In this document: piece after piece, positions 7,644 through 46,011 of the stretch
How the letters are laid out: each line of letters begins with the position of its first letter
Numbering within the stretch: position 1 is the stretch's first letter
DNA from: Candidatus Hydrogenedens sp.
Lineage (GTDB): Bacteria; Hydrogenedentota; Hydrogenedentia; Hydrogenedentales; Hydrogenedentaceae
Assembly: GCA_049968235.1 (NCBI GenBank)
Contig: JBMFRC010000011.1
Span: 35,251 to 99,250 of the forward strand
DNA: 64,000 bases
Direction of reading: 5' to 3'
Translations under genes and position numbers: made by a program
Notes under the pieces: generated by a model
Database searches by the model: none
Told to the model about the DNA's origin: nothing
Seen by the model: the letters and a program-made list of their open reading frames with translations, nothing else

Positions 7644-7648
7644 TATTT

Positions 7649-29672: not shown

Positions 29673-29758
29673 ATACCAAATTTTCATGCTTATGATCTTT
29701 TTATGTTAAAATATATTTGGTATTATTTTATCTAATACATAAAGCAAGGATATTTTGG

Positions 29759-32700
29759 ATGAAAGATTTATCTCTAATTTATAAGATGATAGGTAAAAAA
29801 AATTCGTATTCTTTTCTTTTTTCATTATTAATTTTTTTCTTTTTATTTATTTGTTCGGGATTTTCAGAAGTAAATACGGGGCAAAAAACCGTAGAAAAAC
29901 AGGGGATATTAAACATTACTCAAAGTCTCTCACAAAATCCGGATTGTGCTATAGATTCTTTTCTTGATGTAACTGTTGAGTTAACATACACAGGAGAAGA
30001 CCCCCTACTCACATTAGGTCTAAGGGAAATAGTGCCAGAAGGACTTGTTTACGAAGAGATTATAAGTGGTTCCGCACCTCCACTCCAACCTTCAAGAGGG
30101 GCTTTTGGAACCTTAGAATTTGGTTGGATTTTTGTTCCCTCTTTTCCAGCCTCTTTTACGTTTCGTTTAAGATTTGCACAACCTATTAGTGGTAATCAAT
30201 TTATTACAGGAATTGGTATTTTTGCATCATTTGGAGACCCTCAGGAAACTGAACCTGTCATTTCCTACTTTGACTGTCCAACTATTGAAGGTCAAACCGA
30301 AGGAGAAGGGATAGTCGAAGGTGAGGGGCAAATTGAAGGAGAGGGAATAATCGAAGGAGAAGGGAGCATAGAAACAGTATATTTAAATATATCATCAAAA
30401 TCAGGAGATATATATGCTCCCGAACAAGAAATGGAATTTGAAGTTAATATTTCGTATTTAAATCCTCTGGAAATCACTGCCTTAGGAGCAACGGTATTTT
30501 TGCCTGAGTATTGGCAATTTGTTAAATTTACTGCGGGTTCTCCTCCGCCTATTTATTATTTCGATACGGAAACAGGGAAAGCAGAATTTGCATGGATATT
30601 TCTTCCATCTGGAGGAATTACTTTTTCCTTTTCTGTCCTTGTTTCGCCTGAAACAGAGGGTATTCAGGAAATATCCGGTTATGGGATATATAGAACAACG
30701 GGAGAACCAATCACCACAACTATTTCGAAAATATATTTAACACCTGTCCCCAAACCAGACCTTACTTTGCTTTCGGGAATAGTTACACCGTCAAACCCTT
30801 TTTCCCAGGGGATTATATCAATTAACTACACGGCAAAGAATACAGGTTTTGTAAATATTGACAACAAAAGTTGGAGTGATTGTTTTTACTTATCTAATGA
30901 TGAATGGCTTGATGAAACAGATGTTGAAATAACCTGTATCACCAATAATACTTCTGTTGCGGTTGGCGGACAATATTCAAATTCATTAAAAGCAAAATTA
31001 CCTTCTTCTGCATTTGGAAATATGTATCTTCTTGCTTACCTAAATAAGACAAAGACTATTTATGAAGAATCAAGGGACAATAATGTTGGGGTTATAGGAA
31101 TTATTCAAATACAAGCCAGAGAATATGATTTTCGACTAACTACAGGTATAACAGAAGAGGATGTAGGCACACCTATTCCTATCAAAATATATGCGTATAA
31201 TCCTGAAACCCTACAACCTGCTGTAAATAAACAAATCGTTTTGCAAATTGCTCATCGAGGATTCTCAAAAACTTACACTTTCACTACTGACCAGAATGGG
31301 GAAATAAATTATACATATTTCCCTATATCCAACACAGAAGGAGGGATATATAGCATATCTATCAGAGACCCAAGGGAAGAAGATTATCCTATTACTGAAG
31401 AAGTCTTATTGCGAGGACTTGCGATAACCCCCTCCCACTATTTTCTTGAGGTTATACCTAACAAAACATATACCATTCCCTTTAATATTATCAATTTAGG
31501 GGATACGGAAGAAAAGCAATTATCATTCATGATAACAGGAATACCTCCTGATTGGAATTATGATTATGTTATTCCTTCCTCAATACAGGGACAATCTAAA
31601 GAAACTTGTAAACTTATCCTTTATTCCAAGCCAACAACACAGAATAGCTTCCCTATAATGCTTAATTTACAAAGTAATTCAAAAACTCTTGCAACCGCTC
31701 AATATGATATTCTACCCAAACCCTATCAAACGGTAATAACATCTATTCCTGAAGAGGTTTCTTTACCTTTACTTCTCGAGAAAACTCAGTTTTATACGAT
31801 AGAACTAAAAAATCAAGGAGGAAAAGATTCAGGACCCGCTCGAATACAAATCGAACCTGAAAACCCGAATATTCATTTAGTTACTCCAAACACAGTTTAC
31901 AATATTCCAGCAGGTTCAAGTTATTTCGTTTCATTACAGGTAGGAATCCCATTTATAGAAATTCCAGAACCTATAGAGACATCCCTATCTATTCGTTTTG
32001 AATCGGGATTAAATGTGAGCATTCCTATAAAAGTTATTGAGGATACGACAAAAAGTTTAACAATAAATGTATTTAACAAATATACGAATGAAGCTATCCA
32101 TAATGCTTCCGTTTCTATCGTTAGTGAAACAGGTATTCTTTCTACTTCTCAAATCAATAATGATGGAATAGTTGAAGTTAATAATCTACCTGAACCTCCT
32201 TTTTCTATTGTAATACTAAGTGAGGGATTTGAAAGCCAGACCTATTTTATATCAAATTTAAAGAGCAATCACGAAATGATTGATATTTATTTAGAACCGT
32301 TCTTATCTAAACAATTCTGGTCTTACACAATCGATAATAATCAGAAGCTATATCTACTATCAGTATCCAATAGTTCTGCTCTTGAACCAGACAACACTTC
32401 TGTATTAACAATATCGCCAGGTTATATTCCTTTTATTACAACAGAAATATCTCATAATTCTACACTTTCCATTACCAATCAAGGGATTAAACCTTTATAT
32501 GATGTTTATTTATATCCATTCCAAACTGACTTATTAAATATACAGTATCCTGTTCAATACTTAGGAACAATAGAACCGCAATCTTCTGTTAATATTCCTG
32601 TCCTTTCACAGATATCAGAATCATTTGATTTTGATTCCTCGTGTTCTTCATCGATCTTGACGGGTATCATTTTTTCGGAACAAACTAACAATTCGGATAT

Positions 32701-35700
32701 ATCCCAATTTATGGTAATGCCTTTATGGAATACAGAAGTTTTATGTCCGGATTTTACTCCTATCTATGGGGATTTTTATCAAATAAATAGAATAAATCCT
32801 GATACAACCATTGTTCCAGTAAACATTCAAATATCCCTGCCAGATAATCAATCCAATCAAAATGTACCTATTCTTTCCTACGCAACCGGGCAAATGACCT
32901 TAGCCACAGGAGAAATTCTACCCATTGTAATGAAAACTGCTACTCGGACAGGGCTTTATGAGCAAATAGATATTCAATGGCAAATTCATAATGCGGAAAA
33001 CAATGAGGATATAACTTCTCTATTCCAGATATTTGAATTATCTAATTTTGAGAAAACAGATTTGTTTAATAATATAGAGAAAAAACAATGGTTACTTTAT
33101 CCCTTGCATGAATTTTGGGAAAACCCGATATCGGAAATTCGATTATTCGCACAAATTCATATTATTTCATTACTGGGGACATGGGATATATCCTCTCCCC
33201 CGCTACCTTTGAAGATTCTTTCACAACCTATACTTATGGAACATATATTTGCTCCTCAAATTCACGAATTGCAAATTTCTTCCAGTGCGGATAACTCAGG
33301 AGAAACGGTTCTACCTTTAGCGATTCTTATTTCTCCAACAGATAATATTAATCTCCCTATAAAATTTGAATGGGAGAATATTCAATATTTACATGAAACA
33401 GGAAATATTGCTTCCTTATCCTTAATCCAAACGGCAATAAATGGAATAGGAACGCAATATCAACAAATCACATATAACAACATTTCTTTGCAGAAAGAAA
33501 AAACCAACTCTTATTTGTGGTACTTTTTATCTCCACCTCTTTCAAATAAATGGCAGTTAGTTTCTCGATGGACTTACAAAGACAATAAGGGTACTCTTTT
33601 ACCCCTTATTACCAGGGAACAATATCATGATTTACTGCATACTATTGAAGTTACAGGAGAAAATGCTTCAATAACAACTGGATTACTTAGTAATGATGAT
33701 AATGATGAACAGAGAATACCTGATATTATCTATTTGCCGGATGGAAAAACCTTAAGTATATCTACACCCTCCAATCCTATCTGGGTGTCTATAAATAATT
33801 CCCACAGAGAATATGGTATTGTCTATAGTTCTTCACAACAGTCTGATTATGTTTATTTGCATTCCAATTTTCCGGAGGATGTTCCTGAAGATGCCGTTAT
33901 CCTCCGTATCCTTAGAAGCGATTCAACTGTTATTCCATCTGCCAATTATTGGGTTAGTAAATCTATGAATATGAGTCATAAACATGACCCTGTAAAACCT
34001 TCCTTACATTTTGTTGATAAATCGGGCTACAACTCATATATTGTGGAATTTCAATCCGAATCGTTAGAGAATAAGCCTCCTATCGCTAATGCAGGAGAGG
34101 ACATAACAAATGTATATCGTCCCTCATCTATAACTCTTGACGGGTCTGGGTCCTATGACCCGAATGGAGACCGAATTAATTATTCATGGCGTCTTATCAG
34201 CAAACCTCTTGAGAGTTTTGAATATCTAAGAAACGCAGATACAGCAAATCCCATTTTAATTCCAGACCTTCCCGGAACTTATATTGCACAACTTATTGTT
34301 TCTGATGGTTTTGCTCAAAGTGAACCCGATACGGTTGTTATTGAAGTTGTTAATCGTTTACCGGAGATTGTAATTAATGCTCAACAAAAAGCAAGACCTC
34401 GCGATATCGTTGTCTTAGATGCATCATCCGTAGTAGACCCTGATGGAGATGAAATAGAATTTTTATGGAAACTGGCAACCAAACCCGATGGTAGTCGTGT
34501 ATCACTACAGGGAGTTTTTAATAATACAATAACAATTACACCGGATGTATTGGGTCAATATGAATTTATCTTATACATATCAGATGGCTTTGACAACTCA
34601 TTTGCCCATTGGAAATTAGATGTTTACAACCATCTCCCTGAAATTGCAATCGGGTTTCCACCGACTGTTTATTTAAATACAAATGTATCTATTTCTGCAC
34701 GGGATACTTTTGATATTGACAACGACCCATTATCTTATCAATGGAGATTGGTTTCTGCACCGGTGGGAAGCAATACAATACTTAGTTCTTTTACTCAGCC
34801 CGAAACCAGTTTTGTATCCGATAAAAGAGGCACTTATACATTAAAACTTGAAGTTTTTGATACTTATGAAAAAACAGACAAGACAATTTCTTTACAATGT
34901 GTTAATAGGAAACCTCAAACAATTGTAAATCCCAGTGCTATTGAAGTTCCACATGGTAAAACGGTTATTTTCGATGCTACGCAAAGTTCAGATTTAGATA
35001 ATGACCCACTCACTTTTAATTGGGGACTTCTTTCCCGTCCTATATTAAGTAGTGCGGAAATTTATTTAATTCAAAACAATATAGCTGGGTTAAAAACAGA
35101 CGCACCTGGAAAATATAGTGTAACCTTACAAATAAACGATGGATTTGAATCGGGTGAGATAGTAATATCTCAAATCACAGCAACCAATAATCCTCCAGAG
35201 ATACAATGTCCGGAACAACCTATTCCAGGTTCAGTAGGACAACCTTTAACAATACTATTACCCGAAATAAATGACCCGGAACAGGACCCTATCACATATT
35301 CATGGGAAATTATTTCAAAACCAGTAGAAAGTATGATAGGTCTCATTAACTCTGTAGAGCCTGCATTTACATTCACACCTGACCGTAAAGGAACTTATGA
35401 AATTCAAGTTATAATATCCGACGCATGGGGAGGTAATACATCTTGTGTTATTACAACAGAAATTACCAATCAACGCCCTGTGGCGGTAATTCAATCCGAG
35501 ACGCAGAGTTTTATAAATACTCCTGTATCTCTATCAGCAGAAAGTAGTTATGACCCGGATGGGGATGTTATAAAAGATTATCAATGGACAATTATCAGCA
35601 AACCACAGGGAAGTTTTGCTCAATTGTCCAACCCTACAGGTGTTACAACACAACTGATTCCTGACAAACACGGCAATTATCAGGTGCAACTTCAAATTTA

Positions 35701-37576
35701 TGATGGTAATATGTGGAGTAATCCTGCCATAACAACAATCACCACGGAAAACCGTCCACCTGTAATAACTGTCATTGCATCTGAATATCTTGAAATTGGG
35801 GCTTCTAATGTTTTAGATGCTTCTTTAAGTTATGACCCGGATGGAGATGAGCTTTCCTTTAACTGGAAACTTATCGATAAGCCCAAACAAAGTAAAACGG
35901 AATTAAATAGCGATAACGAATCTATTTGTTCCTTTATACCCGATTATCCAGGATACTATTCTATTGAATTACTTGTCTCAGACCCATATTCTTCTGTATC
36001 TCGTTCCGAAATCGTTCTCCGAACCTTTAATCTTCCACCGATAGCAATCATATCTGCACCTCAAATAATAAAAGTGGGAGATGAAGTAGTATTAGATGGG
36101 ACAAACAGTTATGACCCGGATGGAGATTTGATTACATACCAATGGCAATTATCTTTTCGCCCTAATGATAGTCAAACTACTTTAAGTTCATTAACAGAAC
36201 CTATAACACAATTGTATATTGATAAAGCGGGAACTTATACTATCGAACTTCAAGTCAACGATGGAAAAACGACATCGGATATAAGTACTATCTCCCTCTC
36301 AACAGGAAATGTTGCCCCTACTGCTGTCGTGGAAAAAGATAAAAATGCTGTTGTGGGAAGACCATGTTATCTCGATGCAAGCGCCAGTTTTGACCCTAAT
36401 AACGATGAGTTAGTTTACATCTGGACATTCATATCCCGACCTGATGGAAGTCAGGCAGAAATTTTTGAAACGAATTCCCCCAATCCTTACTTCATACCCG
36501 ATGTCGAAGGTAATTACGAAATACAATTAATTATTTCTGATGGGTACCTGTTTAGTAAACCTGTTGTTATCCGTATTAGTACCACAAACAATCCTCCAGT
36601 AGCACAATTAAAACAAGATGAGTTCCAAGTATATGTGGGGGATACTGTTATTATTGACGGTTCAGATAGTTATGACATAGATAATACTTCTATTTACTAT
36701 GAATGGATATTATTCTCAAAACCTGAAGATAGTAAACTCACAATTCAAAATGCTGACCAACCTATTATTACATTAAACATAGACAAAAAAGGGTTCTATC
36801 AGGGAACTCTTGTTGTTAATGATGGATTTTTAAGAAGTAATATAGTAAATTTCCAGATTACATGTATAAATCATCCTCCTATTGCTATTATCAAAGGACC
36901 TGAAACTGCATTTATTGGAGATACAATAACCCTGGATGGCTCGGATAGTTACGATTCTGACATGGATGTATCTGAATTAGGGTATAAGTGGTCTATTGTT
37001 TCGATGCCAACAGGGAGTTCTGTTACACTGTTAAATCCAAACTTAAAAGTTATTAATTTTATGGTGGACATAGACGGAGTTTATGAATTTCAACTTATTG
37101 TAAATGACCAGGAAACCGATAGTAGCCCCGTAACTCACAAGATAATTACAACCTGTAATAAACCTGCACATCCATCAGGGGTTTATGCAACCGATGGAAT
37201 TTACCCTGACAGGATATTTATTTCATGGAATTCTTCACCGGGGGCTGTGGAATATCGTGTTTATAGAAATGATGAAGATAACCTTGCCTCTGCCGTCCCT
37301 ATATCACCATGGACAGGTAACCTTTATTATGAAGACACAATAACTATAGATGTTCCGGAACCCAGTAAAACTGCTTGTGGATGTTCTGCTAATTGCAATG
37401 AAATGTGCAATCCTCTGGAAACAACCATAACGAAATTTTATTGGGTCATTGCAAGAATTAATGAAAACTGCGTCAGCGAATTTAGTAATTCGGAAAGTGG
37501 TTCTATTACGGTTTCTTCTTCCAATCAAAAGTTACCGAACTTTATTTGCAATATTTTAAGAATTTTCATGAAGTAA
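29759..37576 (+). CDS. giant (about 2600 aa) secreted/cell-surface protein: N-terminal EGEG-x-xEG acidic repeat, beta-rich regions, 11 tandem approx. 95-aa Ig-like (PKD/cadherin-like) domains, FN3-like domain, Cys-rich C-terminus
   Basis: Start at MKDLSLIYKMIGKKNSYSFLFSLLIFFFLFICSGFSE (signal-peptide-like; AAGGAT RBS 8 nt upstream). EGEGIVEGEGQIEGEGIIEGEGSIE repeat. Eleven repeats sharing (P/L)P.(I/A).(I/A)...........V.LD(G/A)S.S.DPDGD.(L/I).(Y/F).W.L.S.P..S...L........F.PD..G.Y...L.V.DG. C-terminal GAVEYRVYRNDED FN3-like segment and CGCSANCNEMCNP. Confidence 0.7.
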   Translation: MKDLSLIYKMIGKKNSYSFLFSLLIFFFLFICSGFSEVNTGQKTVEKQGILNITQSLSQNPDCAIDSFLDVTVELTYTGEDPLLTLGLREIVPEGLVYEEIISGSAPPLQPSRGAFGTLEFGWIFVPSFPASFTFRLRFAQPISGNQFITGIGIFASFGDPQETEPVISYFDCPTIEGQTEGEGIVEGEGQIEGEGIIEGEGSIETVYLNISSKSGDIYAPEQEMEFEVNISYLNPLEITALGATVFLPEYWQFVKFTAGSPPPIYYFDTETGKAEFAWIFLPSGGITFSFSVLVSPETEGIQEISGYGIYRTTGEPITTTISKIYLTPVPKPDLTLLSGIVTPSNPFSQGIISINYTAKNTGFVNIDNKSWSDCFYLSNDEWLDETDVEITCITNNTSVAVGGQYSNSLKAKLPSSAFGNMYLLAYLNKTKTIYEESRDNNVGVIGIIQIQAREYDFRLTTGITEEDVGTPIPIKIYAYNPETLQPAVNKQIVLQIAHRGFSKTYTFTTDQNGEINYTYFPISNTEGGIYSISIRDPREEDYPITEEVLLRGLAITPSHYFLEVIPNKTYTIPFNIINLGDTEEKQLSFMITGIPPDWNYDYVIPSSIQGQSKETCKLILYSKPTTQNSFPIMLNLQSNSKTLATAQYDILPKPYQTVITSIPEEVSLPLLLEKTQFYTIELKNQGGKDSGPARIQIEPENPNIHLVTPNTVYNIPAGSSYFVSLQVGIPFIEIPEPIETSLSIRFESGLNVSIPIKVIEDTTKSLTINVFNKYTNEAIHNASVSIVSETGILSTSQINNDGIVEVNNLPEPPFSIVILSEGFESQTYFISNLKSNHEMIDIYLEPFLSKQFWSYTIDNNQKLYLLSVSNSSALEPDNTSVLTISPGYIPFITTEISHNSTLSITNQGIKPLYDVYLYPFQTDLLNIQYPVQYLGTIEPQSSVNIPVLSQISESFDFDSSCSSSILTGIIFSEQTNNSDISQFMVMPLWNTEVLCPDFTPIYGDFYQINRINPDTTIVPVNIQISLPDNQSNQNVPILSYATGQMTLATGEILPIVMKTATRTGLYEQIDIQWQIHNAENNEDITSLFQIFELSNFEKTDLFNNIEKKQWLLYPLHEFWENPISEIRLFAQIHIISLLGTWDISSPPLPLKILSQPILMEHIFAPQIHELQISSSADNSGETVLPLAILISPTDNINLPIKFEWENIQYLHETGNIASLSLIQTAINGIGTQYQQITYNNISLQKEKTNSYLWYFLSPPLSNKWQLVSRWTYKDNKGTLLPLITREQYHDLLHTIEVTGENASITTGLLSNDDNDEQRIPDIIYLPDGKTLSISTPSNPIWVSINNSHREYGIVYSSSQQSDYVYLHSNFPEDVPEDAVILRILRSDSTVIPSANYWVSKSMNMSHKHDPVKPSLHFVDKSGYNSYIVEFQSESLENKPPIANAGEDITNVYRPSSITLDGSGSYDPNGDRINYSWRLISKPLESFEYLRNADTANPILIPDLPGTYIAQLIVSDGFAQSEPDTVVIEVVNRLPEIVINAQQKARPRDIVVLDASSVVDPDGDEIEFLWKLATKPDGSRVSLQGVFNNTITITPDVLGQYEFILYISDGFDNSFAHWKLDVYNHLPEIAIGFPPTVYLNTNVSISARDTFDIDNDPLSYQWRLVSAPVGSNTILSSFTQPETSFVSDKRGTYTLKLEVFDTYEKTDKTISLQCVNRKPQTIVNPSAIEVPHGKTVIFDATQSSDLDNDPLTFNWGLLSRPILSSAEIYLIQNNIAGLKTDAPGKYSVTLQINDGFESGEIVISQITATNNPPEIQCPEQPIPGSVGQPLTILLPEINDPEQDPITYSWEIISKPVESMIGLINSVEPAFTFTPDRKGTYEIQVIISDAWGGNTSCVITTEITNQRPVAVIQSETQSFINTPVSLSAESSYDPDGDVIKDYQWTIISKPQGSFAQLSNPTGVTTQLIPDKHGNYQVQLQIYDGNMWSNPAITTITTENRPPVITVIASEYLEIGASNVLDASLSYDPDGDELSFNWKLIDKPKQSKTELNSDNESICSFIPDYPGYYSIELLVSDPYSSVSRSEIVLRTFNLPPIAIISAPQIIKVGDEVVLDGTNSYDPDGDLITYQWQLSFRPNDSQTTLSSLTEPITQLYIDKAGTYTIELQVNDGKTTSDISTISLSTGNVAPTAVVEKDKNAVVGRPCYLDASASFDPNNDELVYIWTFISRPDGSQAEIFETNSPNPYFIPDVEGNYEIQLIISDGYLFSKPVVIRISTTNNPPVAQLKQDEFQVYVGDTVIIDGSDSYDIDNTSIYYEWILFSKPEDSKLTIQNADQPIITLNIDKKGFYQGTLVVNDGFLRSNIVNFQITCINHPPIAIIKGPETAFIGDTITLDGSDSYDSDMDVSELGYKWSIVSMPTGSSVTLLNPNLKVINFMVDIDGVYEFQLIVNDQETDSSPVTHKIITTCNKPAHPSGVYATDGIYPDRIFISWNSSPGAVEYRVYRNDEDNLASAVPISPWTGNLYYEDTITIDVPEPSKTACGCSANCNEMCNPLETTITKFYWVIARINENCVSEFSNSESGSITVSSSNQKLPNFICNILRIFMK
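34076..37160 (+). repeat. 11 tandem, diverged coding repeats (about 285 nt each) encoding Ig-like domains
   Basis: Repeat starts at protein segments PPIANAGEDI, LPEIVINAQQ, LPEIAIGFPP, KPQTIVNPSA, PPEIQCPEQP, RPVAVIQSET, PPVITVIASE, PPIAIISAPQ, APTAVVEKDK, PPVAQLKQDE, PPIAIIKGPE. Copies are divergent at the protein level, so they are ancient rather than recent duplications. Confidence 0.7.
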
Positions 37577-37954: not shown

Positions 37955-38560
37955 TTGTTAGGTATCGGAGCCACATTAATTTTGCGATTATTGGGGTGGA
38001 GAGTACAGGGACCGCCTCCTCCCTATCCGAAATATGTTGTGATTTTTGCTCCCCATACATCAAACTGGGATGGATTGGTAGGGATTTTGTGTAGTTTTGC
38101 ATTACGGGTTCGTGGAAACTGGCTGGGTAAAGGTTCATTATTCAAAGGTGTTTTTGGATGGTTTTTAAAAAAGATCGGAGGAATTCCTGTAGACCGTTCT
38201 ACACCCAACCGATTCGTAGAACAGGCTGAAGAACTTTTTGAAGGAAATGAACAGGTGGTCCTTGCAATTGCTCCTGAAGGGACAAGGGAATTCAGTAACC
38301 ATTGGAAAAGTGGTTTTTATCATATCGCCTATCATTCCAGAGTTCCTATTGTTCTCGGATTCTGGGATTATAGGACCAAAAGAGTTGGAAATTCCGGTAT
38401 TGCAGTAATGCCAACAGGAAATATTGAAGAAGATTTAAAGATTATTCGCGACACATATAATCAATTTTTACCGAAATATCCTGAATGTAGAAGCCTTGTT
38501 CAGTTCAAAGACACACAAATCCTGCAAATAAACAAAGCATCCCAACAAGACCGCAAATAA
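37955..38560 (+). CDS. PlsC-family (lysophospholipid/1-acylglycerol-3-phosphate-type) acyltransferase
   Basis: H-x4-D acyltransferase motif (FAPHTSNWDG), PEGTR motif (IAPEGTREFS), about 200 aa. Apparent TTG start, so the start is uncertain. Confidence 0.6.
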   Translation: MLGIGATLILRLLGWRVQGPPPPYPKYVVIFAPHTSNWDGLVGILCSFALRVRGNWLGKGSLFKGVFGWFLKKIGGIPVDRSTPNRFVEQAEELFEGNEQVVLAIAPEGTREFSNHWKSGFYHIAYHSRVPIVLGFWDYRTKRVGNSGIAVMPTGNIEEDLKIIRDTYNQFLPKYPECRSLVQFKDTQILQINKASQQDRK

Positions 38561-38640
38561 AAATTTGTAAAATTGCTATCATTTTTGTAATATTACTCAT
38601 AAACATAAAATTCAATAAAAACAATTAAAGGGTATGAGAT

Positions 38641-39441
38641 ATGGGAACATTATCCTGTCCTTTCTGCAAAACAAAACAAGGTAATATTCAAAACGACATT
38701 AAAGCCTCGATTTACTTAAAGGCGGTATTACCAACTCTTGTTGACCTCGTTCAGTTAGATAAACCTGCAAAAGATTTAATTAACTCTGTAAACGAGAAGA
38801 TACTCTTTTCGCTCCGAAATGGAGAAAAAACCTTTTTGAGGATTGAAAATGGAGAGATTTTATATTCTCCTGAAAAAAAGGATAATCCAACTATCCATAT
38901 TCTTCTTATAAGCCCGGAACATGCGGTTCAAGTTTTTGAACAAGGGAAACTTCCTTTCTTATTAAAAGGTTTTACACGAATTTCTTTTCTTAAGAAAAAT
39001 TTTGATGCTCTTACCAAACGATTGGAGTATTACTTAAAAGGTCCCCAAAGTTATACAGAAGAAGAGAAAAAAATATATGCGATACTTCAACTTAAAACCG
39101 CTCTTCGTTCTGCGGAAGTTCTTGCCGAAAAAGAGGAAGTATCTAAAAAGATACTTGCAGGTACACCTGAGGGCATATTAAAAGTAGCCATAGAAAGCAT
39201 TGATTTTGCTGTATATTTTGGGAAAGTAGACGGGAAATGGAGATATATAGACCAACTATCGGGACAGAAATTTAATTCGGTATTAAGCTTAAAGGACCTT
39301 GAAACAACAGAACTTTTGCTTACAAACAAACTGGATACATTTGCAGGTTTAGGATTAGGGAAAATTCATATTTCCGGCATTATACCCATTATTGATAATG
39401 TAGGACTGGTTTTAGGGCGTATTACTCAATATATTTCTTAA
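38641..39441 (+). CDS. hypothetical protein with two SCP2-like (sterol-carrier/lipid-binding-like) halves; paralog of 42628..43407
   Basis: Segments ...GKLPFLLKGFTRISF and ...LLLTNKLDTFAGLGLGKIHISG resemble the SCP2 C-terminal helix pattern (gkl.p..af..GklkieGd). Collinear similarity to the ORF at 42628 (AVLP(T/V)...ARNGE...GKL.LP.IKGF). Confidence 0.4.
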   Translation: MGTLSCPFCKTKQGNIQNDIKASIYLKAVLPTLVDLVQLDKPAKDLINSVNEKILFSLRNGEKTFLRIENGEILYSPEKKDNPTIHILLISPEHAVQVFEQGKLPFLLKGFTRISFLKKNFDALTKRLEYYLKGPQSYTEEEKKIYAILQLKTALRSAEVLAEKEEVSKKILAGTPEGILKVAIESIDFAVYFGKVDGKWRYIDQLSGQKFNSVLSLKDLETTELLLTNKLDTFAGLGLGKIHISGIIPIIDNVGLVLGRITQYIS

Positions 39442-39461
39442 ATCATAAAGGAGTTGTATTT

Positions 39462-40700
39462 ATGCAAGTTTTCAACTATACCGAAAATCAAAAATGGTTT
39501 GAAAGAGCAACTCGTGTTATTCCCTGTGGAGTATATGGACATTTCAGTCCTGCTCCATGTGTTCCGACGAATGCCTATCCTTTCTTTAGCACTCGTGCAG
39601 ATGGTTGTAAATTCTGGGATGTAGATGGAAACGAATTTATTGATTACATGTGTGCTTATGGTCCTATGATTATGGGGTATCACAATCCTGTGGTAGATGA
39701 AGCATTTATAAAACAATTGAAACAAGCGGATGCAAATAGTATTGCTTCTACCAAAATGGTGGAGTTGGCAGAGTTTTTAGTTGATTTAATTCCTGTAGCA
39801 GATTGGGCATTTTTTGCTAAGAATGGAGCGGATGTAACAAATTATGCAGTGATGATAGCACGGGCAGAAACAGGCAGGAAAAAAATTATTGCTATAAAGG
39901 GTGGGTATCATGGAACAGCACCCTGGATGCAGGGAATTGGTCATCCCGGGGTTACAGAAGAAGATGTAGTTAATGTCATTCGAATTCCATGGAATGACCT
40001 GAAAGCATTGGAACAAGCACTGGAAGAAAACTATGGACAGGTTGCTGGCTTTATTTCTTCTCCATATCATCACCCTGTATTTACAGATAATGAGTATCCT
40101 GCAGAAGGTTACTGGGATGGTGTTCAGAAGTTATTAAAGAAACATGGTGTTGTTTTAATCTGCGATGATGTTCGTGCAGGTTTTCGACTTCATTTAGGGG
40201 GTTCTAACGAATATTTTAAGTTCAAACCTGACCTGATATGTTTTTGTAAAGCTATTGCCAATGGCTATCCGATATCTGCACTTGTGGGCAAAGAAGAATT
40301 AAAAGTAACAGCATCGAAGGTATTTCATACCGGCAGTTATTGGTATTCTGCTGCATTTATGTCTGCTGCCATAGCCAACCTTAATGAATTAAAAAGACTA
40401 AAGGCACCGGAATATCTGGAACAATTGGGGAACAAATTTAATGAAGGACTAATTAAATTAGCAAGAGATTATGGATTTAATTTGAAAGTTACAGGGCATC
40501 CTGCAATGGCATATTATCGGATTACAGATGACCCGAGTTTACAACTTCATCAAAGATGGTGTGCGGAATGCACACGACGGGGTGCTTTTTTCACTTCACA
40601 CCACAATTGGTTCTTATCGATGGCGCACACGGATGCGGACATTCAAAAAACATGGGAAATTTGCGAGGAAGCATTTAAGGTAATAAAATCATCTATATAA
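39462..40700 (+). CDS. class-III PLP-dependent aminotransferase (glutamate-1-semialdehyde aminomutase-like fold)
   Basis: GSA-aminomutase-like N-terminus (RATRVIPCGV...), DDVRAGFRLHLGGS block and PLP-Lys region (ICFCKAIANGYPISALVGK). RBS AAGGAG. Confidence 0.8.
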   Translation: MQVFNYTENQKWFERATRVIPCGVYGHFSPAPCVPTNAYPFFSTRADGCKFWDVDGNEFIDYMCAYGPMIMGYHNPVVDEAFIKQLKQADANSIASTKMVELAEFLVDLIPVADWAFFAKNGADVTNYAVMIARAETGRKKIIAIKGGYHGTAPWMQGIGHPGVTEEDVVNVIRIPWNDLKALEQALEENYGQVAGFISSPYHHPVFTDNEYPAEGYWDGVQKLLKKHGVVLICDDVRAGFRLHLGGSNEYFKFKPDLICFCKAIANGYPISALVGKEELKVTASKVFHTGSYWYSAAFMSAAIANLNELKRLKAPEYLEQLGNKFNEGLIKLARDYGFNLKVTGHPAMAYYRITDDPSLQLHQRWCAECTRRGAFFTSHHNWFLSMAHTDADIQKTWEICEEAFKVIKSSI

Positions 40701-40732
40701 TATTAAAAAGATTTGTAGAGGAGTAATCAATT

Positions 40733-41578
40733 ATGCCCTTAACAGAACTGGAACACAAAGAACTTAAAACTATTGCAAAAAAGATAAGAAAGGACATTGT
40801 AGATGTTACCCATTGGTCAGGAGGAAGTCATATCGGTGGGTCTTTAAGCATGGTGGATTTTATGGTTGTTCTTTACTGGAAATATATGCGAATAGATCCT
40901 AAAAATCCATCGTGGGAAGACAGAGACCGTCTGGTATTGAGTAAAGGACATGGAGGTGTAGGACATGCTGTTATCCTTGCAAATCGTGGTTATTTTGATT
41001 TTGAACTATTAAAAGAATTCAATCAATTTGGTTCTGCTTTTGGTATGCATTTAGATTCTAAAAAAGCCACCGGAGTTGAAGCCTCTACGGGTTCTATGGG
41101 GCATGGTCTTTCTCAGGCACTGGGCATGGCTTTAGGAGCCCGGGTATTAAAAAAAGATTGGAAAATTTACGCCGTTATTGGTGATGGTGAGTGTAATGAA
41201 GGTTCCATCTGGGAGTCAGCTATGGCTGCAAGTCATTATAAGACTGGCAACCTTATTGGCTTTTTAGACCGTAACCATATGATGATTGATGGACCCACGG
41301 AGTCGGTTATGAGTCTGGAACCCATTGATAAGAAATGGGAAGCATTCGGTTGGTATACACAGGTCATTAATGGCCATGATATGTCCCAGATATGCGATGC
41401 CATTGATAAAGCACTCGCTTATAACGAAGGACCTTCCATGATTATATGTGATACTATCAAAGGCAAAGGTGTCGATTTCATGGAAAACAATCCGGCATGG
41501 CATTATGGCGGACTTAATGCTGAACAAGCGGAAAAAGCAAAACTTTCTATAGATAAAATGTATCCAGATGTCTCATAA
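40733..41578 (+). CDS. transketolase, N-terminal (TPP-binding) subunit
   Basis: HIGGSLSMVDFMVVLY...NPSWEDRDRLVLSKGHG and TPP motif GDGECNEGSIWE. Confidence 0.85.
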   Translation: MPLTELEHKELKTIAKKIRKDIVDVTHWSGGSHIGGSLSMVDFMVVLYWKYMRIDPKNPSWEDRDRLVLSKGHGGVGHAVILANRGYFDFELLKEFNQFGSAFGMHLDSKKATGVEASTGSMGHGLSQALGMALGARVLKKDWKIYAVIGDGECNEGSIWESAMAASHYKTGNLIGFLDRNHMMIDGPTESVMSLEPIDKKWEAFGWYTQVINGHDMSQICDAIDKALAYNEGPSMIICDTIKGKGVDFMENNPAWHYGGLNAEQAEKAKLSIDKMYPDVS

Positions 41579-41611
41579 AAATTAACCCATTATATTGATA
41601 GGAGAAGTAAT

Positions 41612-42628
41612 ATGAGCCCTGTGGGAGGTTTAACATGGACGGTATATGATGCCGACAAAATGACCCAAGCAGAAACATACGGACTTGTTTTAAGTGAATT
41701 GGGGAAAATAAACCCCAAAATAGTAGGTCTTTCCGCAGACTTAGCCAAGTCCACTAAAATTGGGAAGTTTGGAGAGAAATTTCCAGAGCGTTTTTTTAAT
41801 TTAGGTATAGCGGAACAAAATATGTTTGGTGTAGCGGCAGGTTTAGCTAAAGTAGGACTTTTACCTTTTGTCTCTACATTTTCAGTTTTTGCATCCATGC
41901 GTGCAGTAGAATTTTTAAGAACTGATATTTGCTATCAGAATTTAAATGTAAAAATTATAGCAACGCATGGTGGAACCTCCTTTGGTTCTGCGGGGACAAC
42001 GCACCATTCTATAGAAGACCTTTCTATTATCCGTGCTATCCCTAATATACAACTTATTGTGCCTGCAGATGCGGTTGAAACAGCATTAGCGGTTCAGGCA
42101 TGTGTGGAAGTTGAAGGTCCTGTATATATACGAATTGGACGCAGTTTCGAACCTCGTGTGTATCAAACAGACCAATACGGGTTTCAAATTGGTAAAGCGG
42201 TAGAAATGAAATCTGGCACAGATGTAACGGTTATAGCTTGTGGTGCAGTTGTTTACCATGCTGTAGAAGCGGCGAATATCCTGGAACGGGAAGATGGTAT
42301 ATCGGTTCGCGTCTTAAATATGCACACCATCAAACCCATTGACCGTGAAGCCATTTTGAAAGCACTTATGGAAACACGAAGGATTGTTACTTTTGAAGAC
42401 CATAATGTTATTGGTGGTTTAGGTAGTGCGGTAAGTGAAGTAATTGCAGAAAGTGGGAAATCGTGTGCATTTACTAAGGTAGGGATACCCGACCAGTTCA
42501 CACCTCACGGTTATCCTGAGGATTTGATGCATTATTATAAAATTGATACAGATGGTATTGTAGAAAAGGTTAGAGAATTGCTTGGAAAGGAATTTGAAAA
42601 AGAAGAAGACTGGGAGGATGAATACTAA
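41612..42628 (+). CDS. transketolase, C-terminal (pyrimidine-binding) subunit
   Basis: ETYGLVLSELGKINPKIVGLSADLAKSTK, ...FNLGIAEQNMFGVAAGLA..., C-terminal transketolase-C domain. Its stop overlaps the next ATG (TAATG). Confidence 0.85.
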   Translation: MSPVGGLTWTVYDADKMTQAETYGLVLSELGKINPKIVGLSADLAKSTKIGKFGEKFPERFFNLGIAEQNMFGVAAGLAKVGLLPFVSTFSVFASMRAVEFLRTDICYQNLNVKIIATHGGTSFGSAGTTHHSIEDLSIIRAIPNIQLIVPADAVETALAVQACVEVEGPVYIRIGRSFEPRVYQTDQYGFQIGKAVEMKSGTDVTVIACGAVVYHAVEAANILEREDGISVRVLNMHTIKPIDREAILKALMETRRIVTFEDHNVIGGLGSAVSEVIAESGKSCAFTKVGIPDQFTPHGYPEDLMHYYKIDTDGIVEKVRELLGKEFEKEEDWEDEY

Positions 42629-43407
42629 TGGTGGAAAATGAAAAGGATATTTTAATTTCAAAAATCATCTTACGAGCGGTTCTACCTGTTATAAAGGTAT
42701 TATTAGAAGACCATCCTGCATTTCAGAAACGGTTTAAGGATGTTCAAGGCACGGTTCAATTTACAGCCCGAAATGGGGAACAAACCGCTGGAGCCTGTAT
42801 AAAATTTGATAAGTTAAATTTTGAAATATCTTATGAATTGTTAGAAAAACCGGATATAAGTTTTCATTTTAGTTCATTGAAAAAGATGAATGATTTTTTT
42901 ACAGGCAAATTAGTTTTACCTAAAATTAAAGGGTTTAAAAATTTCTCTTTACTGTGGAGAATGTTTAGTGTTCTTTTGAAATTAAAATTACTTATGCCGG
43001 ATGCCAGGCCTAAAAATCCGGTCGATAAAAGAATTAAAGTTAAAATGACTTTATACATGGTGTCAACTGCTTTAAGTCAGTTAAACAAATCCGGTGATGT
43101 TGATATGGTCAAGTGGACATCAAAACAGCCGGAACGAATATATCAGTGGTCCGTAGATAACGAAGATATTGCATGCTGGCTGAAAATCAAAGCGGGACAA
43201 TCCAAAGCAGGAAGGGGGTATTATACTTTACGAAAGCCGTTTGTCCACATGCGTTTTCCGGATATAGACTCTGCGATACCTGTATTAACAAACTCCGTAG
43301 ATACGGTTCAAGCCATGGCACAGGGCTTACTAATCACGGAAGGTTCCCCGGAGTATGCAGCAAAGTTGGGTGATTTTATGTTAAAAATAGCCGAATTGCT
43401 AACATAA
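42628..43407 (+). CDS. hypothetical SCP2-like protein, paralog of 38641..39441
   Basis: Collinear similarity to the 38641 ORF (RAVLPVIKVLLEDHPAF / KAVLPTLVDLVQLDKPA; GKLVLPKIKGFKNFSLL / GKLPFLLKGFTRISFL). Translationally coupled to the transketolase C-subunit. Confidence 0.4.
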   Translation: MVENEKDILISKIILRAVLPVIKVLLEDHPAFQKRFKDVQGTVQFTARNGEQTAGACIKFDKLNFEISYELLEKPDISFHFSSLKKMNDFFTGKLVLPKIKGFKNFSLLWRMFSVLLKLKLLMPDARPKNPVDKRIKVKMTLYMVSTALSQLNKSGDVDMVKWTSKQPERIYQWSVDNEDIACWLKIKAGQSKAGRGYYTLRKPFVHMRFPDIDSAIPVLTNSVDTVQAMAQGLLITEGSPEYAAKLGDFMLKIAELLT

Positions 43408-43551: not shown

Positions 43552-45015
43552 ATGAAACAGGAAGTAACATTAAAATTAGCATTAATTCCATGCATTATTC
43601 TTATTTCTTTATTAGTCATTAATGTCTGGATATTTGGAGATGAGGCTACTTCGGGACCCTGTCAGGTTGCTCTTCTGATATCCTCCATTATAGGAGGGAT
43701 TATTGGTCATACGAAATTAGGGCTTTCTTACAGAGAAATAGAACGAAATGCAATACATTCAATTGTTCTTGCGATGGAAGCCATTATTATTCTCCTGGTC
43801 GTGGGTGCAACAATTGCTTTATGGATTCAAGGAGGTATTGTGCCAAGTATTATTTACTATGGCATCCAGATACTAACCGCTAAATCCTTTCCTATAGTAG
43901 CCTGCATTATTTGTTCCATCGTTTCATTAGCCATTGGGAGTAGTTGGTCCACAATGGGTACGATTGGGGTAGCCCTTATGGGGATTGGAAAAGCCTTAGG
44001 CTATTCAGAATCTCTGGTGGCGGGGGCTATTATTTCAGGTGCCTATCTTGGAGATAAAATGTCTCCCCTATCCGATACTACCAATCTTGCACCTGCCGTT
44101 AGTGGAACCAATCTTTTTAGACATATAAGGAACATGCTAAACACAACTATACCTGCTTATATTCTGACTTTAATTATTTTTCTTTGTATTGGATTGTTCT
44201 CACATACAAAAGGACAGGACATTCTCCAAACAGATGAAATTATTCGGGGTTTGGAACAGAATTTTTTTATTCATTGGTCTTTCTTTATCGTTCCTCTTAT
44301 TGTTATTCTCCTTGCTATAAAACAAACGCCCGCAATACCGGCACTTACAGTGGGTTGTATTTTAGGAGGAATACTTGCGTTTGCATTCCAAAATAGTTAT
44401 CCTGAAAATGTCCATCAAATTCCTTCCTTTATCTCCAAAAATTATAAAAGTATCATTTATGTGGCTTACCATGGATACAAATTAGAGAGTGGTATTCCTG
44501 TTCTGGATGATTTATTATCTGCGGGTGGTATGGAAAGAATGTTTTCTACAATTTCTCTTATTATTATGGCAATGTTATTTGGAGGTGTGATGGAAGCCAC
44601 AGGAATGCTTCAGAAGATAGCGGAATCTATATTGAACCATGTTCATTCTGCAGGGGGATTAATGATTTCTACAGTATTGAGTTGCATCATTTTTAACATA
44701 TTAGCAGCGGAACAATATTTAGCCATTGTTATACCCGGTAGAATGTATCGGGCATCATATATAGCGAGACATCTGGATATGAGGAATTTATCCCGGACCT
44801 TAGAAGATGGTGCGACTGTAACCTCTGTATTAGTTCCATGGAATACCTGCGGAGCCTTCGCAAGTTCCGTTTTAGGGACTTCTACATTTCATTATCTCCC
44901 CTTTTGTTTCTTTAACTGGATAACGCCTATAGTATCCATTCTTATGTCTATGATAAATTATAATATTATTCCTGCGGAGAAACAGGAAAATGAAACACAA
45001 ACACACAAAGAATGA
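43552..45015 (+). CDS. NhaC-family Na+/H+ antiporter
   Basis: About 12 TM helices, length and N-terminal pattern (…LISLLVINVWIFGDEATSGP…) consistent with the NhaC family. Confidence 0.65.
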   Translation: MKQEVTLKLALIPCIILISLLVINVWIFGDEATSGPCQVALLISSIIGGIIGHTKLGLSYREIERNAIHSIVLAMEAIIILLVVGATIALWIQGGIVPSIIYYGIQILTAKSFPIVACIICSIVSLAIGSSWSTMGTIGVALMGIGKALGYSESLVAGAIISGAYLGDKMSPLSDTTNLAPAVSGTNLFRHIRNMLNTTIPAYILTLIIFLCIGLFSHTKGQDILQTDEIIRGLEQNFFIHWSFFIVPLIVILLAIKQTPAIPALTVGCILGGILAFAFQNSYPENVHQIPSFISKNYKSIIYVAYHGYKLESGIPVLDDLLSAGGMERMFSTISLIIMAMLFGGVMEATGMLQKIAESILNHVHSAGGLMISTVLSCIIFNILAAEQYLAIVIPGRMYRASYIARHLDMRNLSRTLEDGATVTSVLVPWNTCGAFASSVLGTSTFHYLPFCFFNWITPIVSILMSMINYNIIPAEKQENETQTHKE

Positions 45016-45039
45016 GTGTATTTACATCAAGGAAAGAAA

Positions 45040-46011
45040 ATGGCTTTAACCTTAACCCATATATATAAGCCTATTCAGGAACAAATATTAAAGGTAGCAG
45101 AAGAAGTTCAAAAAATATGGGAAGATGCATTAAAACTTGTAAATATAGATTTTTCTATGGCACCTAAGGCAAAAGGGAAGTTGCTCCGACCTGCTGTATG
45201 TTTGTTATCTGCAGGGGCTATTGGTGAGGAAGACCTAAATACCTATATATCTCTGGGAACTGCCTTTGAATTACTTCATCTGGCATCACTTACACACGAT
45301 GATGTTATTGACCGAGCGGTTCTCCGTCGAGGTGGACAATCCTTAAATATACTCTGGGATAACCATGCTGCGGTATTGGGAGGGGATTATTTAGTTGCAA
45401 GAGCTATCGAACTTTTAGGAATTTACAAAAACTATGAACTTATTATCAATGCAGTTCAATGTGTTCGTGAAATGGCAGAAGGTGAATTAAAATTTTTTGC
45501 CAAGCCTATAGAAACTTTTACTCTGGAAGACTGCACAGAGTTAGCCAAGAAAAAAACGGCTATGTTATTTGCTCGTTCCGCTTCTTCTTCTGCTCTTATA
45601 AAAAAATCGCCTGTCATGGAGACATTGTTCCGTTTCGGGGAAAACATTGGTATTGCATTTCAATTTATTGATGACTTATTGGATTTAACACAGGATACAA
45701 ATATTTTAGGGAAACCCAGATATAGTGACATCTACGAACAAAAAGTTACTTTGCCCATATTAACTTTATGGAACAAATTAACAGATAAAGAAAAGGAACA
45801 ATTTTTACATATTTTTGGCAAATCCATTGAAAAAAAAGAACAACAATGGTTAGAACAAAATATAAAGAAGTATAAAATTGAGGAAGATTTATTACAACAT
45901 ACGGAACGACTTAAACTTACAGCAATAGAAGAATTAAATCGTCTGCCGGATAGTATTTACAAAGATTCTTTAATACAACTATGTTACTTTGTGGTTCAAC
46001 GAGAAAATTAA
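45040..46011 (+). CDS. trans-polyprenyl diphosphate synthase (IspB/HepT-like)
   Basis: First and second Asp-rich motifs (LLHLASLTHDDVIDRAVLRRG and FQFIDDLLDL). Start chosen at the ATG after AAGGAAAG rather than the abutting GTG at 45016. Confidence 0.8.
   Translation: MALTLTHIYKPIQEQILKVAEEVQKIWEDALKLVNIDFSMAPKAKGKLLRPAVCLLSAGAIGEEDLNTYISLGTAFELLHLASLTHDDVIDRAVLRRGGQSLNILWDNHAAVLGGDYLVARAIELLGIYKNYELIINAVQCVREMAEGELKFFAKPIETFTLEDCTELAKKKTAMLFARSASSSALIKKSPVMETLFRFGENIGIAFQFIDDLLDLTQDTNILGKPRYSDIYEQKVTLPILTLWNKLTDKEKEQFLHIFGKSIEKKEQQWLEQNIKKYKIEEDLLQHTERLKLTAIEELNRLPDSIYKDSLIQLCYFVVQREN

Follow-up and report, generated by a model that had tools for sequence, protein, structure and literature searches.

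A split transketolase and two tandem proteins with the fold of sterol carrier protein 2 (SCP2) are encoded side by side, together with an aminotransferase, in Candidatus Hydrogenedens sp. and in many related and distant bacteria. The cassette was analysed in a 64,000-nucleotide stretch of contig JBMFRC010000011.1, referred to here as the window. The conserved unit is made by five genes, SCP2-A, aminotransferase, TK-N, TK-C and SCP2-B, and its invariant core is TK-N/TK-C/SCP2-B, TK-N and TK-C denoting the two transketolase subunits. The reading favoured here, tentatively and as something short of probable, is that of a module outside the pentose-phosphate pathway, which would convert a hydrophobic 2-amino-1,3-diol into its 2-ketone, and the latter into an aldehyde and a C2 unit, or the reverse, and would work mainly in catabolism.

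The locus holds six open reading frames (ORFs), all on the + strand. Their order and coordinates coincide exactly with those assigned in a first-pass annotation of the window (lengths in amino acids, aa; PLP, pyridoxal phosphate; GSA, glutamate-1-semialdehyde):

37955-38560, + strand: PlsC/LPLAT-type acyltransferase, 201 aa, TTG start (PF01553)
38641-39441, + strand: SCP2-like protein A (SCP2-A), 266 aa, tandem SCP2 fold, paralog of SCP2-like protein B
39462-40700, + strand: class-III PLP aminotransferase of the FumI / GSA-aminomutase-like branch, 412 aa (PF00202)
40733-41578, + strand: split transketolase N (PP-domain) subunit (TK-N), 281 aa (PF00456)
41612-42628, + strand: split transketolase C (Pyr and C-terminal domain) subunit (TK-C), 338 aa (PF02779 and PF02780)
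42628-43407, + strand: SCP2-like protein B (SCP2-B), 259 aa, tandem SCP2 fold

The stop codon of TK-C overlaps the start codon of SCP2-B in the pentanucleotide TAATG, as had been reported, and the overlap suggests coupled expression of the two genes. Identical copies of the aminotransferase were found on two Candidatus Hydrogenedens contigs from metagenome-assembled genomes (MAGs), with the gene order unchanged.

Conservation was measured in one genome per species, using an SCP2-B alignment as query, and 56 species-level loci were obtained. Synteny counts rest on tblastn; ORFs were clustered with a GC3-based filter, because of the long antisense ORFs of high-GC loci. Most loci reside in Hydrogenedentota; the others, at 35-50% identity, come from unclassified MAGs and from MAGs carrying the labels Desulfobacteraceae, Deltaproteobacteria, Thermodesulfobacteriota, Zymogenus and Spirochaetales. 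SCP2-B is immediately preceded by TK-N and TK-C in 45 of the 46 informative genome loci, and in all informative loci of a metagenome scan. Upstream of SCP2-B, a FumI-like aminotransferase was found in 31 and a recognisable SCP2-A in 28 of 36 informative loci, the acyltransferase in 5 of 36 only, all from the closest low-GC relatives. The cassette had been predicted to be conserved as a unit; this holds for the five genes, which co-occur widely, and fails for the set of six. The five genes do not always keep the same order, as in a 69% GC metagenome contig (L128, 6011-10800) they run TK-N, TK-C, SCP2-B, SCP2-A, aminotransferase; a GH31 glycosidase gene lies next to them. One locus (L050) carries the TK-N/TK-C/SCP2-B core alone. 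As the arrangement recurs in dozens of species and in several phyla, it is far beyond chance. In the high-GC Hydrogenedentota, mean identity to the window proteins is 74% for TK-C, 67% for TK-N, 66% for the aminotransferase, 58% for SCP2-B and 30% for SCP2-A.

The sole exception to the TK-N/TK-C/SCP2-B rule is L048 (2093-3629). This contig is short (3.8 kb), and the transketolase may lie elsewhere. Here a gene similar to histone deacetylases and acetylpolyamine amidohydrolases ends 4 nt before SCP2-B.

TK-N matches PF00456 (E 3e-49), TK-C both PF02779 and PF02780, and the closest solved chains come from the same organism, Carboxydothermus hydrogenoformans (6yak for TK-N, 267 bits; 6yaj for TK-C, 313 bits). 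The enzyme is split, with the PP domain carried by one chain, both the Pyr and the C-terminal domain by the next, and the two genes side by side. Active-site residues were compared by aligning 39 (TK-N) to 51 (TK-C) sequences of the clade with three reference transketolases, TktA of E. coli, the human one and that of C. hydrogenoformans; residues are given in E. coli numbering, unless a window residue is named. In TK-N, residues H26, H66, H100, D155, D183 and N185 are retained in 38-39 of 39 sequences, H124 in all 39, H261 (one gap) and Y258 in 38. In TK-C, E411, F437, S385, H461, H473 and R520 are found in all 51 sequences, F434 in 48. The motif binding thiamine diphosphate (ThDP) and the metal (D155, D183 and N185, invariant in 39/39) and the cofactor-activating glutamate (E411, 51/51) are thus present, as are, in the window proteins, all the catalytic and donor-binding histidines (H26, H66, H100, H261, H473).

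The clade departs from canonical enzymes at one position above all. Asp469 (Asp477 in yeast) reads the C2 hydroxyl of the acceptor or the C4 hydroxyl of the donor. Aspartate is found here in all three reference enzymes, and never in the clade, where the position is occupied by alanine (45/51; Ala127 in the window) or glycine (6/51). The surrounding GEDG motif is changed to GSAG in the window TK-C, and to G[S/P/Q]AG across the clade. In the wider family of split transketolases, sampled by its 150 best cluster representatives, GEDG or GPDG predominate, and several other variant clades exist. Three further changes are invariant, Q118H (39/39), L466F and Q474H (both 51/51), and in TK-N the motif WHG beside H261 is changed to WHY. 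At the phosphate-binding set R358/S385/H461/R520, the latter three are found in 51/51; position 358 is arginine in 32 of 51 sequences and alanine in 16, the window (Ala20) and 15 relatives. In known enzymes Asp469 forms a hydrogen bond with a sugar hydroxyl and selects the stereoisomer, and it is the standard site mutated for the acceptance of aliphatic and aromatic aldehydes (PMC11387542, PMC5073344). Judged by its residues, the protein is probably a catalytically competent, ketol-transferring transketolase, one substrate of which would lack the hydroxyl normally read by Asp469. The second substrate may still be a sugar phosphate.

The aminotransferase matches PF00202 (E 2e-41), and falls under every NCBIfam cut-off. 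The labels HemL (glutamate-1-semialdehyde 2,1-aminomutase; TIGR00713, 218 vs 527 bits; NF000818, 229 vs 398 bits) and GntE (guanitoxin) were rejected, the scores being far below the curated thresholds; these and other labels reflect a resemblance at the level of the family. The best solved relative is 6hbs, the aminopentol aminotransferase FumI of Sphingopyxis (297 bits; 39% identity over 401 aa), while the best GSA aminomutase scores 167 bits. The PLP lysine, K263, aligns with that of FumI and is invariant in 40/40 sequences. The protein is therefore a class-III enzyme, and FumI is a nearer relative than GSA aminomutase. The reaction catalysed by FumI is deamination of the 2-amino-3-ol in hydrolysed fumonisin, an aminopentol resembling sphinganine, with pyruvate as preferred acceptor and a KM of 1.1 uM for the lipid (PMC3136697). 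The proposal that a ThDP-dependent C2 transfer and a transamination act here on a lipid-like amino-polyol fits this relationship.

The two proteins bracketing the aminotransferase and transketolase genes had been described as paralogs of about 260 aa with an SCP2-like fold, and both statements withstood scrutiny. By sequence comparison SCP2-A and SCP2-B are full-length paralogs, with 25% identity over 240 aa in BLASTP (E 9e-9) and a profile-profile match of the ortholog alignments at 99.6% probability (E 6e-25, 247 columns). The predicted models of both have the alpha/beta SCP2 fold, and SCP2 structures are their best matches. In the SCP2-A model the order helix-helix-four strands-helix-strand-helix is seen in both halves. 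In SCP2-B the same order is clear in the N-terminal half only, and residues 168-198 are of low confidence; the C-terminal half is assigned through a Pfam match (residues 169-248). Pfam scores are weak, as PF02036 matches only the C-terminal half of SCP2-B, at 22.5 bits vs a gathering score of 21.3, and the Pfam search of SCP2-A gave no PF02036 match. A precomputed PF02036 match is carried by many members of the SCP2-B family. The direct profile match between the N- and C-terminal halves is weak. On the predicted models, SCP2-A and SCP2-B are both read as tandem double-SCP2 proteins.

SCP2-B has 287 detectable family members, all unnamed, which measure 258-265 aa except for one partial sequence of 206 aa. 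SCP2-A evolves fast, identity across the phylum being about 30%. It is proposed that SCP2-A carries a hydrophobic substrate for the aminotransferase, and that SCP2-B presents lipids to the transketolase, as its partner or as one of its subunits. Conservation in SCP2-B is highest in a stretch (QPERIYQW ... KAG ... GRG ... PFVHM) that spans residues 167-207 (window 43126-43248), and coincides with the sole low-confidence part of the model (pLDDT <50, residues 168-198). Residues 168-198 may fold only upon binding of a partner or ligand.

Outside Hydrogenedentota the core is found in varied company. In L052, L063 and L064 the genes on one strand encode two class-III enzymes similar to putrescine aminotransferase and PigE (373-399 bits), a single-domain SCP2 protein, two APC permeases and three V4R proteins, followed by TK-N, TK-C, SCP2-B and alanine dehydrogenase. 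The single-domain SCP2 protein, which measures 119 aa (L052, 2471-2830), lies in the same operon as the core. The V4R proteins of L052, a Thermodesulfobacteriota MAG, are three tandem paralogs of ~205-240 aa (5849-7973); with them the module has gained another type of small protein that binds hydrophobic ligands. Both features are identical in L063 and L067. TetR and alanine dehydrogenase genes precede the five-gene module in L092 and L094, in the former immediately upstream of SCP2-A. In L116 the core is followed by alanine dehydrogenase, an enoyl-CoA hydratase and an ADP-forming acyl-CoA synthetase. A Zn-dependent alcohol dehydrogenase is found directly upstream of TK-N in L106, a DAGK/YegS-type lipid kinase upstream in L088, and a protein with a metallo-beta-lactamase fold and a carbamoyltransferase downstream in L054. 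In at least four separate lineages an alanine dehydrogenase gene is found beside the module, and its recurrence matches a transaminase dependent on pyruvate and alanine. The common denominator of all these contexts is the transketolase with SCP2-B, joined by varied enzymes that generate or consume carbonyls and by hydrophobic-ligand-binding proteins.

From these data the following sequence of steps may be drawn. A hydrophobic 2-amino-1,3-diol, similar to a sphingoid base, would be carried by SCP2-A to the aminotransferase, which would interconvert it with the 1,3-dihydroxy-2-ketone, pyruvate and alanine serving as the partner pair. The 1,3-dihydroxy-2-alkanone is, in chemical terms, a ketose with a lipid tail, and could be presented by SCP2-B to the transketolase. 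The latter would make or break the C2-C3 bond, moving C1-C2 as glycolaldehyde-ThDP to an acceptor, probably glyceraldehyde-3-phosphate, which would yield xylulose-5-phosphate. The fatty aldehyde released would have no alpha-hydroxyl, so that Asp469 would not be needed. Both tandem SCP2 proteins would hold water-insoluble substrates, and SCP2-B probably docks on the transketolase. All steps would be reversible in principle, and the amino diol would be formed if they ran backwards. The physiological direction would be mainly catabolic, from the amino lipid to a fatty aldehyde and a pentose-phosphate intermediate. This direction is preferred because of the contexts with alanine dehydrogenase, TetR, permeases and acyl-CoA enzymes, of the parallel with the fumonisin (fum) cluster described below, and of the lifestyle of Hydrogenedentota, which are predicted lipid degraders (PMC10866078).

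A narrower version of the scheme, a hitherto unknown ThDP-dependent route for sphingoid-type bases, is doubtful. In it a FumI-like transaminase would form the lipid ketose, and the transketolase devoid of Asp469 would split it into a fatty aldehyde and a C2 unit entering the pentose-phosphate pool. The double-SCP2 proteins would feed the lipid. Run in reverse, the route would turn a fatty aldehyde into a sphingoid base without serine palmitoyltransferase. If true, it would be an alternative both to degradation by a kinase and S1P-lyase and to synthesis based on serine palmitoyltransferase.

Several observations weigh against the amino-diol scheme. Canonical transketolases need a 3S hydroxyl, and the common D-erythro sphingoid bases are 3R; fumonisin is 2S,3S, unlike the latter. 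Retention of S385, H461 and R520, and of R358 in 32 of 51 sequences, suggests that a sugar phosphate is still bound, and the enzyme might have an altered sugar specificity. The FumI family is large (>6000 matches), and in Variovorax (L061, 8001-17290) a homolog 70% identical to FumI is the first gene of an operon that also encodes a peptide ABC transporter of the Opp type, an amidase and a protein similar to penicillin amidases. Members of the family clearly have other native substrates, and 39% identity therefore leaves the substrate unfixed. SCP2-B, which features many conserved polar residues (QPERIYQW, GSPEY), could have a role other than lipid carriage. L052 has putrescine-type aminotransferases and APC-type permeases, both suited to small polar amines, and the neighbours in L054 look biosynthetic. 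In most Hydrogenedentota loci the cassette is surrounded by unrelated genes, and its conserved neighbours were found to include neither a regulator nor a transporter; a constitutive biosynthetic role would therefore also fit.

Small or aromatic primary amines, as polyamines and biogenic amines, may be considered in place of lipids as the compounds degraded or detoxified. A transaminase would convert them into a reactive aldehyde without alpha-hydroxyl; the variant transketolase would condense the aldehyde with a ketol donor, or cleave a hydroxyketone, and SCP2 and V4R proteins would sequester the intermediates. The loss of Asp469 suits any aldehyde of this kind, and the genes surrounding TK/SCP2-B in L052, L063 and L064 (putrescine-aminotransferase/PigE-like, APC permease, alanine dehydrogenase, V4R), as the acetylpolyamine-amidohydrolase-like gene found directly upstream of SCP2-B in L048, speak in its favour. 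Such a function is nevertheless unlikely, as the aminotransferase is FumI-like, and not of the putrescine type, in 31 of 36 loci. Small polar amines have no need of SCP2 carriers, which hardly agrees with the conservation of two tandem SCP2 proteins, and the addition of a C2 unit to an aminoaldehyde brings no obvious metabolic gain.

Equally low is the likelihood given to the biosynthesis of an amino lipid typical of the phylum, or of a secondary metabolite. The transketolase would join an aldehyde to a donor, either a ketol or a 2-oxoacid, the aminotransferase would add the amine, as AniP and AniQ do in anisomycin biosynthesis, and in the lineage of the window the acyltransferase would acylate the product. 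This role stays alive because the cassette is spread throughout much of Hydrogenedentota, with identities declining gradually over the 56 species-level loci and no regulator or transporter as conserved neighbour in most, because the acyltransferase lies 80 bp upstream in the window, in a housekeeping context, and because a carbamoyltransferase lies downstream in L054. Moreover, natural pairs of transketolase and aminotransferase, and split transketolases, are known in natural-product pathways (PMC11387542). On the other side, the acyltransferase is not conserved, and the contexts with alanine dehydrogenase, TetR, permease and acyl-CoA genes look catabolic. AniP lacks the histidine-rich motif (PMC11387542), while H26, H100, H261 and H473 are kept here, so that the enzyme is not of the AniP type but a true transketolase, able to transfer ketol units. 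Synthesis of an aminolipid headgroup or of a lipid-linked aminosugar had been suggested in the first-pass annotation. No pointer to an aminosugar was found, and synthesis is not established; the same gene contexts and the parallel with the fum cluster lean towards catabolism.

A housekeeping pentose-phosphate transketolase of the Carboxydothermus kind, with the SCP2-like and aminotransferase genes as functionally unrelated neighbours, would agree with the active split enzyme being the closest solved structure, with C. hydrogenoformans having a split transketolase only (PMC7661550), with the retention of all catalytic and three of the four phosphate-binding residues, and with no other transketolase being seen in a partial survey of the 64-kb window, but is quite improbable, as had been anticipated, because Asp469, kept in the C. 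hydrogenoformans, human and E. coli enzymes, is replaced by alanine or glycine in 51/51 clade members whereas GEDG/GPDG dominate among 150 representative homologs, because the transketolase is locked to the SCP2-B gene across phyla and through a change of gene order, and because the overlap of TK-C and SCP2-B suggests coupled expression.

The acyltransferase, placed 80 bp upstream of SCP2-A on the same strand, had been regarded as part of the pathway. It belongs to the PlsC/LPLAT group, matching PF01553 (43 bits vs 23) and featuring the motifs HX4D (HTSNWD, residue 34) and EGTR (residue 108), and scores 39 bits vs a cut-off of 103 with the AGPAT model TIGR00530. Its confinement to close Hydrogenedens relatives (5 of 36 loci) marks it as a lineage-specific neighbour rather than a cassette member; a link with the module is at most possible. 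The genes downstream of SCP2-B are:

43552-45015, + strand: NhaC-family transporter (TIGR00931, 407 bits), 145 bp downstream of SCP2-B
45016-46011: polyprenyl synthase, with a GTG start at the base right after the NhaC stop codon
46040-47183: ECF sigma factor, then a putative anti-sigma protein, downstream of the polyprenyl synthase

The NhaC transporter, which is possibly an importer but not core, is adjacent only in close relatives (L003-L008 and similar loci), and the whole NhaC/polyprenyl synthase/ECF sigma block travels with the cassette only there. Acyltransferase, NhaC transporter and polyprenyl synthase were thus rejected as core members of the pathway, their distribution being narrow. 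Neighbours in the high-GC Hydrogenedentota (sulfatases, Gfo/Idh/MocA proteins, pyrE/pyrF, 5'-nucleotidase and others) show no conservation and were discarded as clues.

The window has a GC content of ~36%, and the cassette has housekeeping surroundings (sigma-54, H+-pyrophosphatase, RNase III, ECF sigma factor, CCA-adding enzyme). A scan for promoters and terminators was uninformative, as shuffled sequences gave more sites than the real one. Directly upstream of the cassette lies an ORF of 2619 aa (29717-37576, + strand) featuring an N-terminal hydrophobic segment, GEGxxEGEG repeats and ~12 PKD / K319L-like repeat units; it adjoins the acyltransferase also in close Hydrogenedens relatives. A protein of 1122 aa is encoded at 19206-22574 on the - strand, and its Pfam matches are only many short calcium-binding motifs of the EF-hand type, an unusual content for a bacterial protein of this size.

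If the chemistry proposed above is correct, the cassette encodes a natural transketolase acting on a lipid, with a built-in lipid-carrier partner. Anaerobic lipid-degrading bacteria would have a new, oxygen-independent way of degrading or producing amino lipids of the sphingoid-like kind, and a function would be assigned to several hundred double-SCP2 proteins now called hypothetical. The enzymes could be useful as biocatalysts for long-chain amino alcohols, and FumI-type enzymes are already of interest in mycotoxin detoxification.

All the parts belong to known families. Literature searches on clusters of split transketolase, aminotransferase and SCP2, of transketolase and sphingoid base, and of sterol carrier protein and transketolase gave nothing relevant, and a search on Hydrogenedentes and transketolase found no statement about a second transketolase. 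In the literature found, the combination of a split transketolase devoid of Asp469 with a tandem-SCP2 protein as obligatory partner, and with a FumI-like aminotransferase as a usual one, is undescribed.

The closest parallel is the fum cluster of Sphingopyxis granuli (L059, 10001-16212), which carries an 88%-identical FumI. The FumD esterase, regulators and transporters are found upstream of FumI, a TonB-dependent receptor downstream, followed, two genes after FumI, by an acetolactate-synthase-like ThDP enzyme of 567 aa. We know of no experimental demonstration of the step after FumI in fumonisin catabolism. The ThDP enzyme is a plausible candidate for the cleavage of 2-keto-hydrolysed fumonisin, and might act on the alpha-hydroxyketone formed by FumI. 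As in the cassette, a FumI-type aminotransferase is paired with a ThDP enzyme, which provides an independent precedent in a catabolic cluster. Differences are that the ThDP enzyme is single-chain and of the acetolactate-synthase type, that the substrate is 1-deoxy (a methyl ketone), and that SCP2 proteins are missing; genes for an esterase, a TonB receptor and tricarballylate are in turn absent from the cassette.

The split transketolase of C. hydrogenoformans (6yaj/6yak) is likewise made by two chains, shares all the ThDP-binding and catalytic residues, and accepts bulky aldehydes such as phenylacetaldehyde (PMC7661550). It keeps GEDG, with Asp469, and Arg358, and is the only transketolase of the organism, whereas the cassette enzyme features GSAG, Q118H, L466F and Q474H, and an SCP2 gene always comes next. 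AniP/AniQ of the anisomycin pathway, and engineered cascades, join like the cassette a transketolase-type C-C step to a transamination, and give amino-polyols. AniP differs in being single-chain, in using aromatic 2-oxoacid donors and in lacking the histidine-rich motif; the cascades are artificial, and lipid-carrier proteins are absent from both. Asp469 variants of the E. coli enzyme are the choice of chemists for aliphatic and aromatic aldehydes and for 2-amino-1,3-diol cascades (PMC11387542, PMC5073344, PMC5813273), and the cassette, if correctly read, would be the natural counterpart of these mutant transketolase/transaminase systems for chiral 2-amino-1,3-diols. Among proteins of the SCP2 fold, UbiJ/UbiT, the SCP2 domain of alkylsulfatases and SCP-x all differ from SCP2-A and SCP2-B, which are tandem double-SCP2 proteins of ~260 aa, form a family of their own, and are linked to a transketolase.

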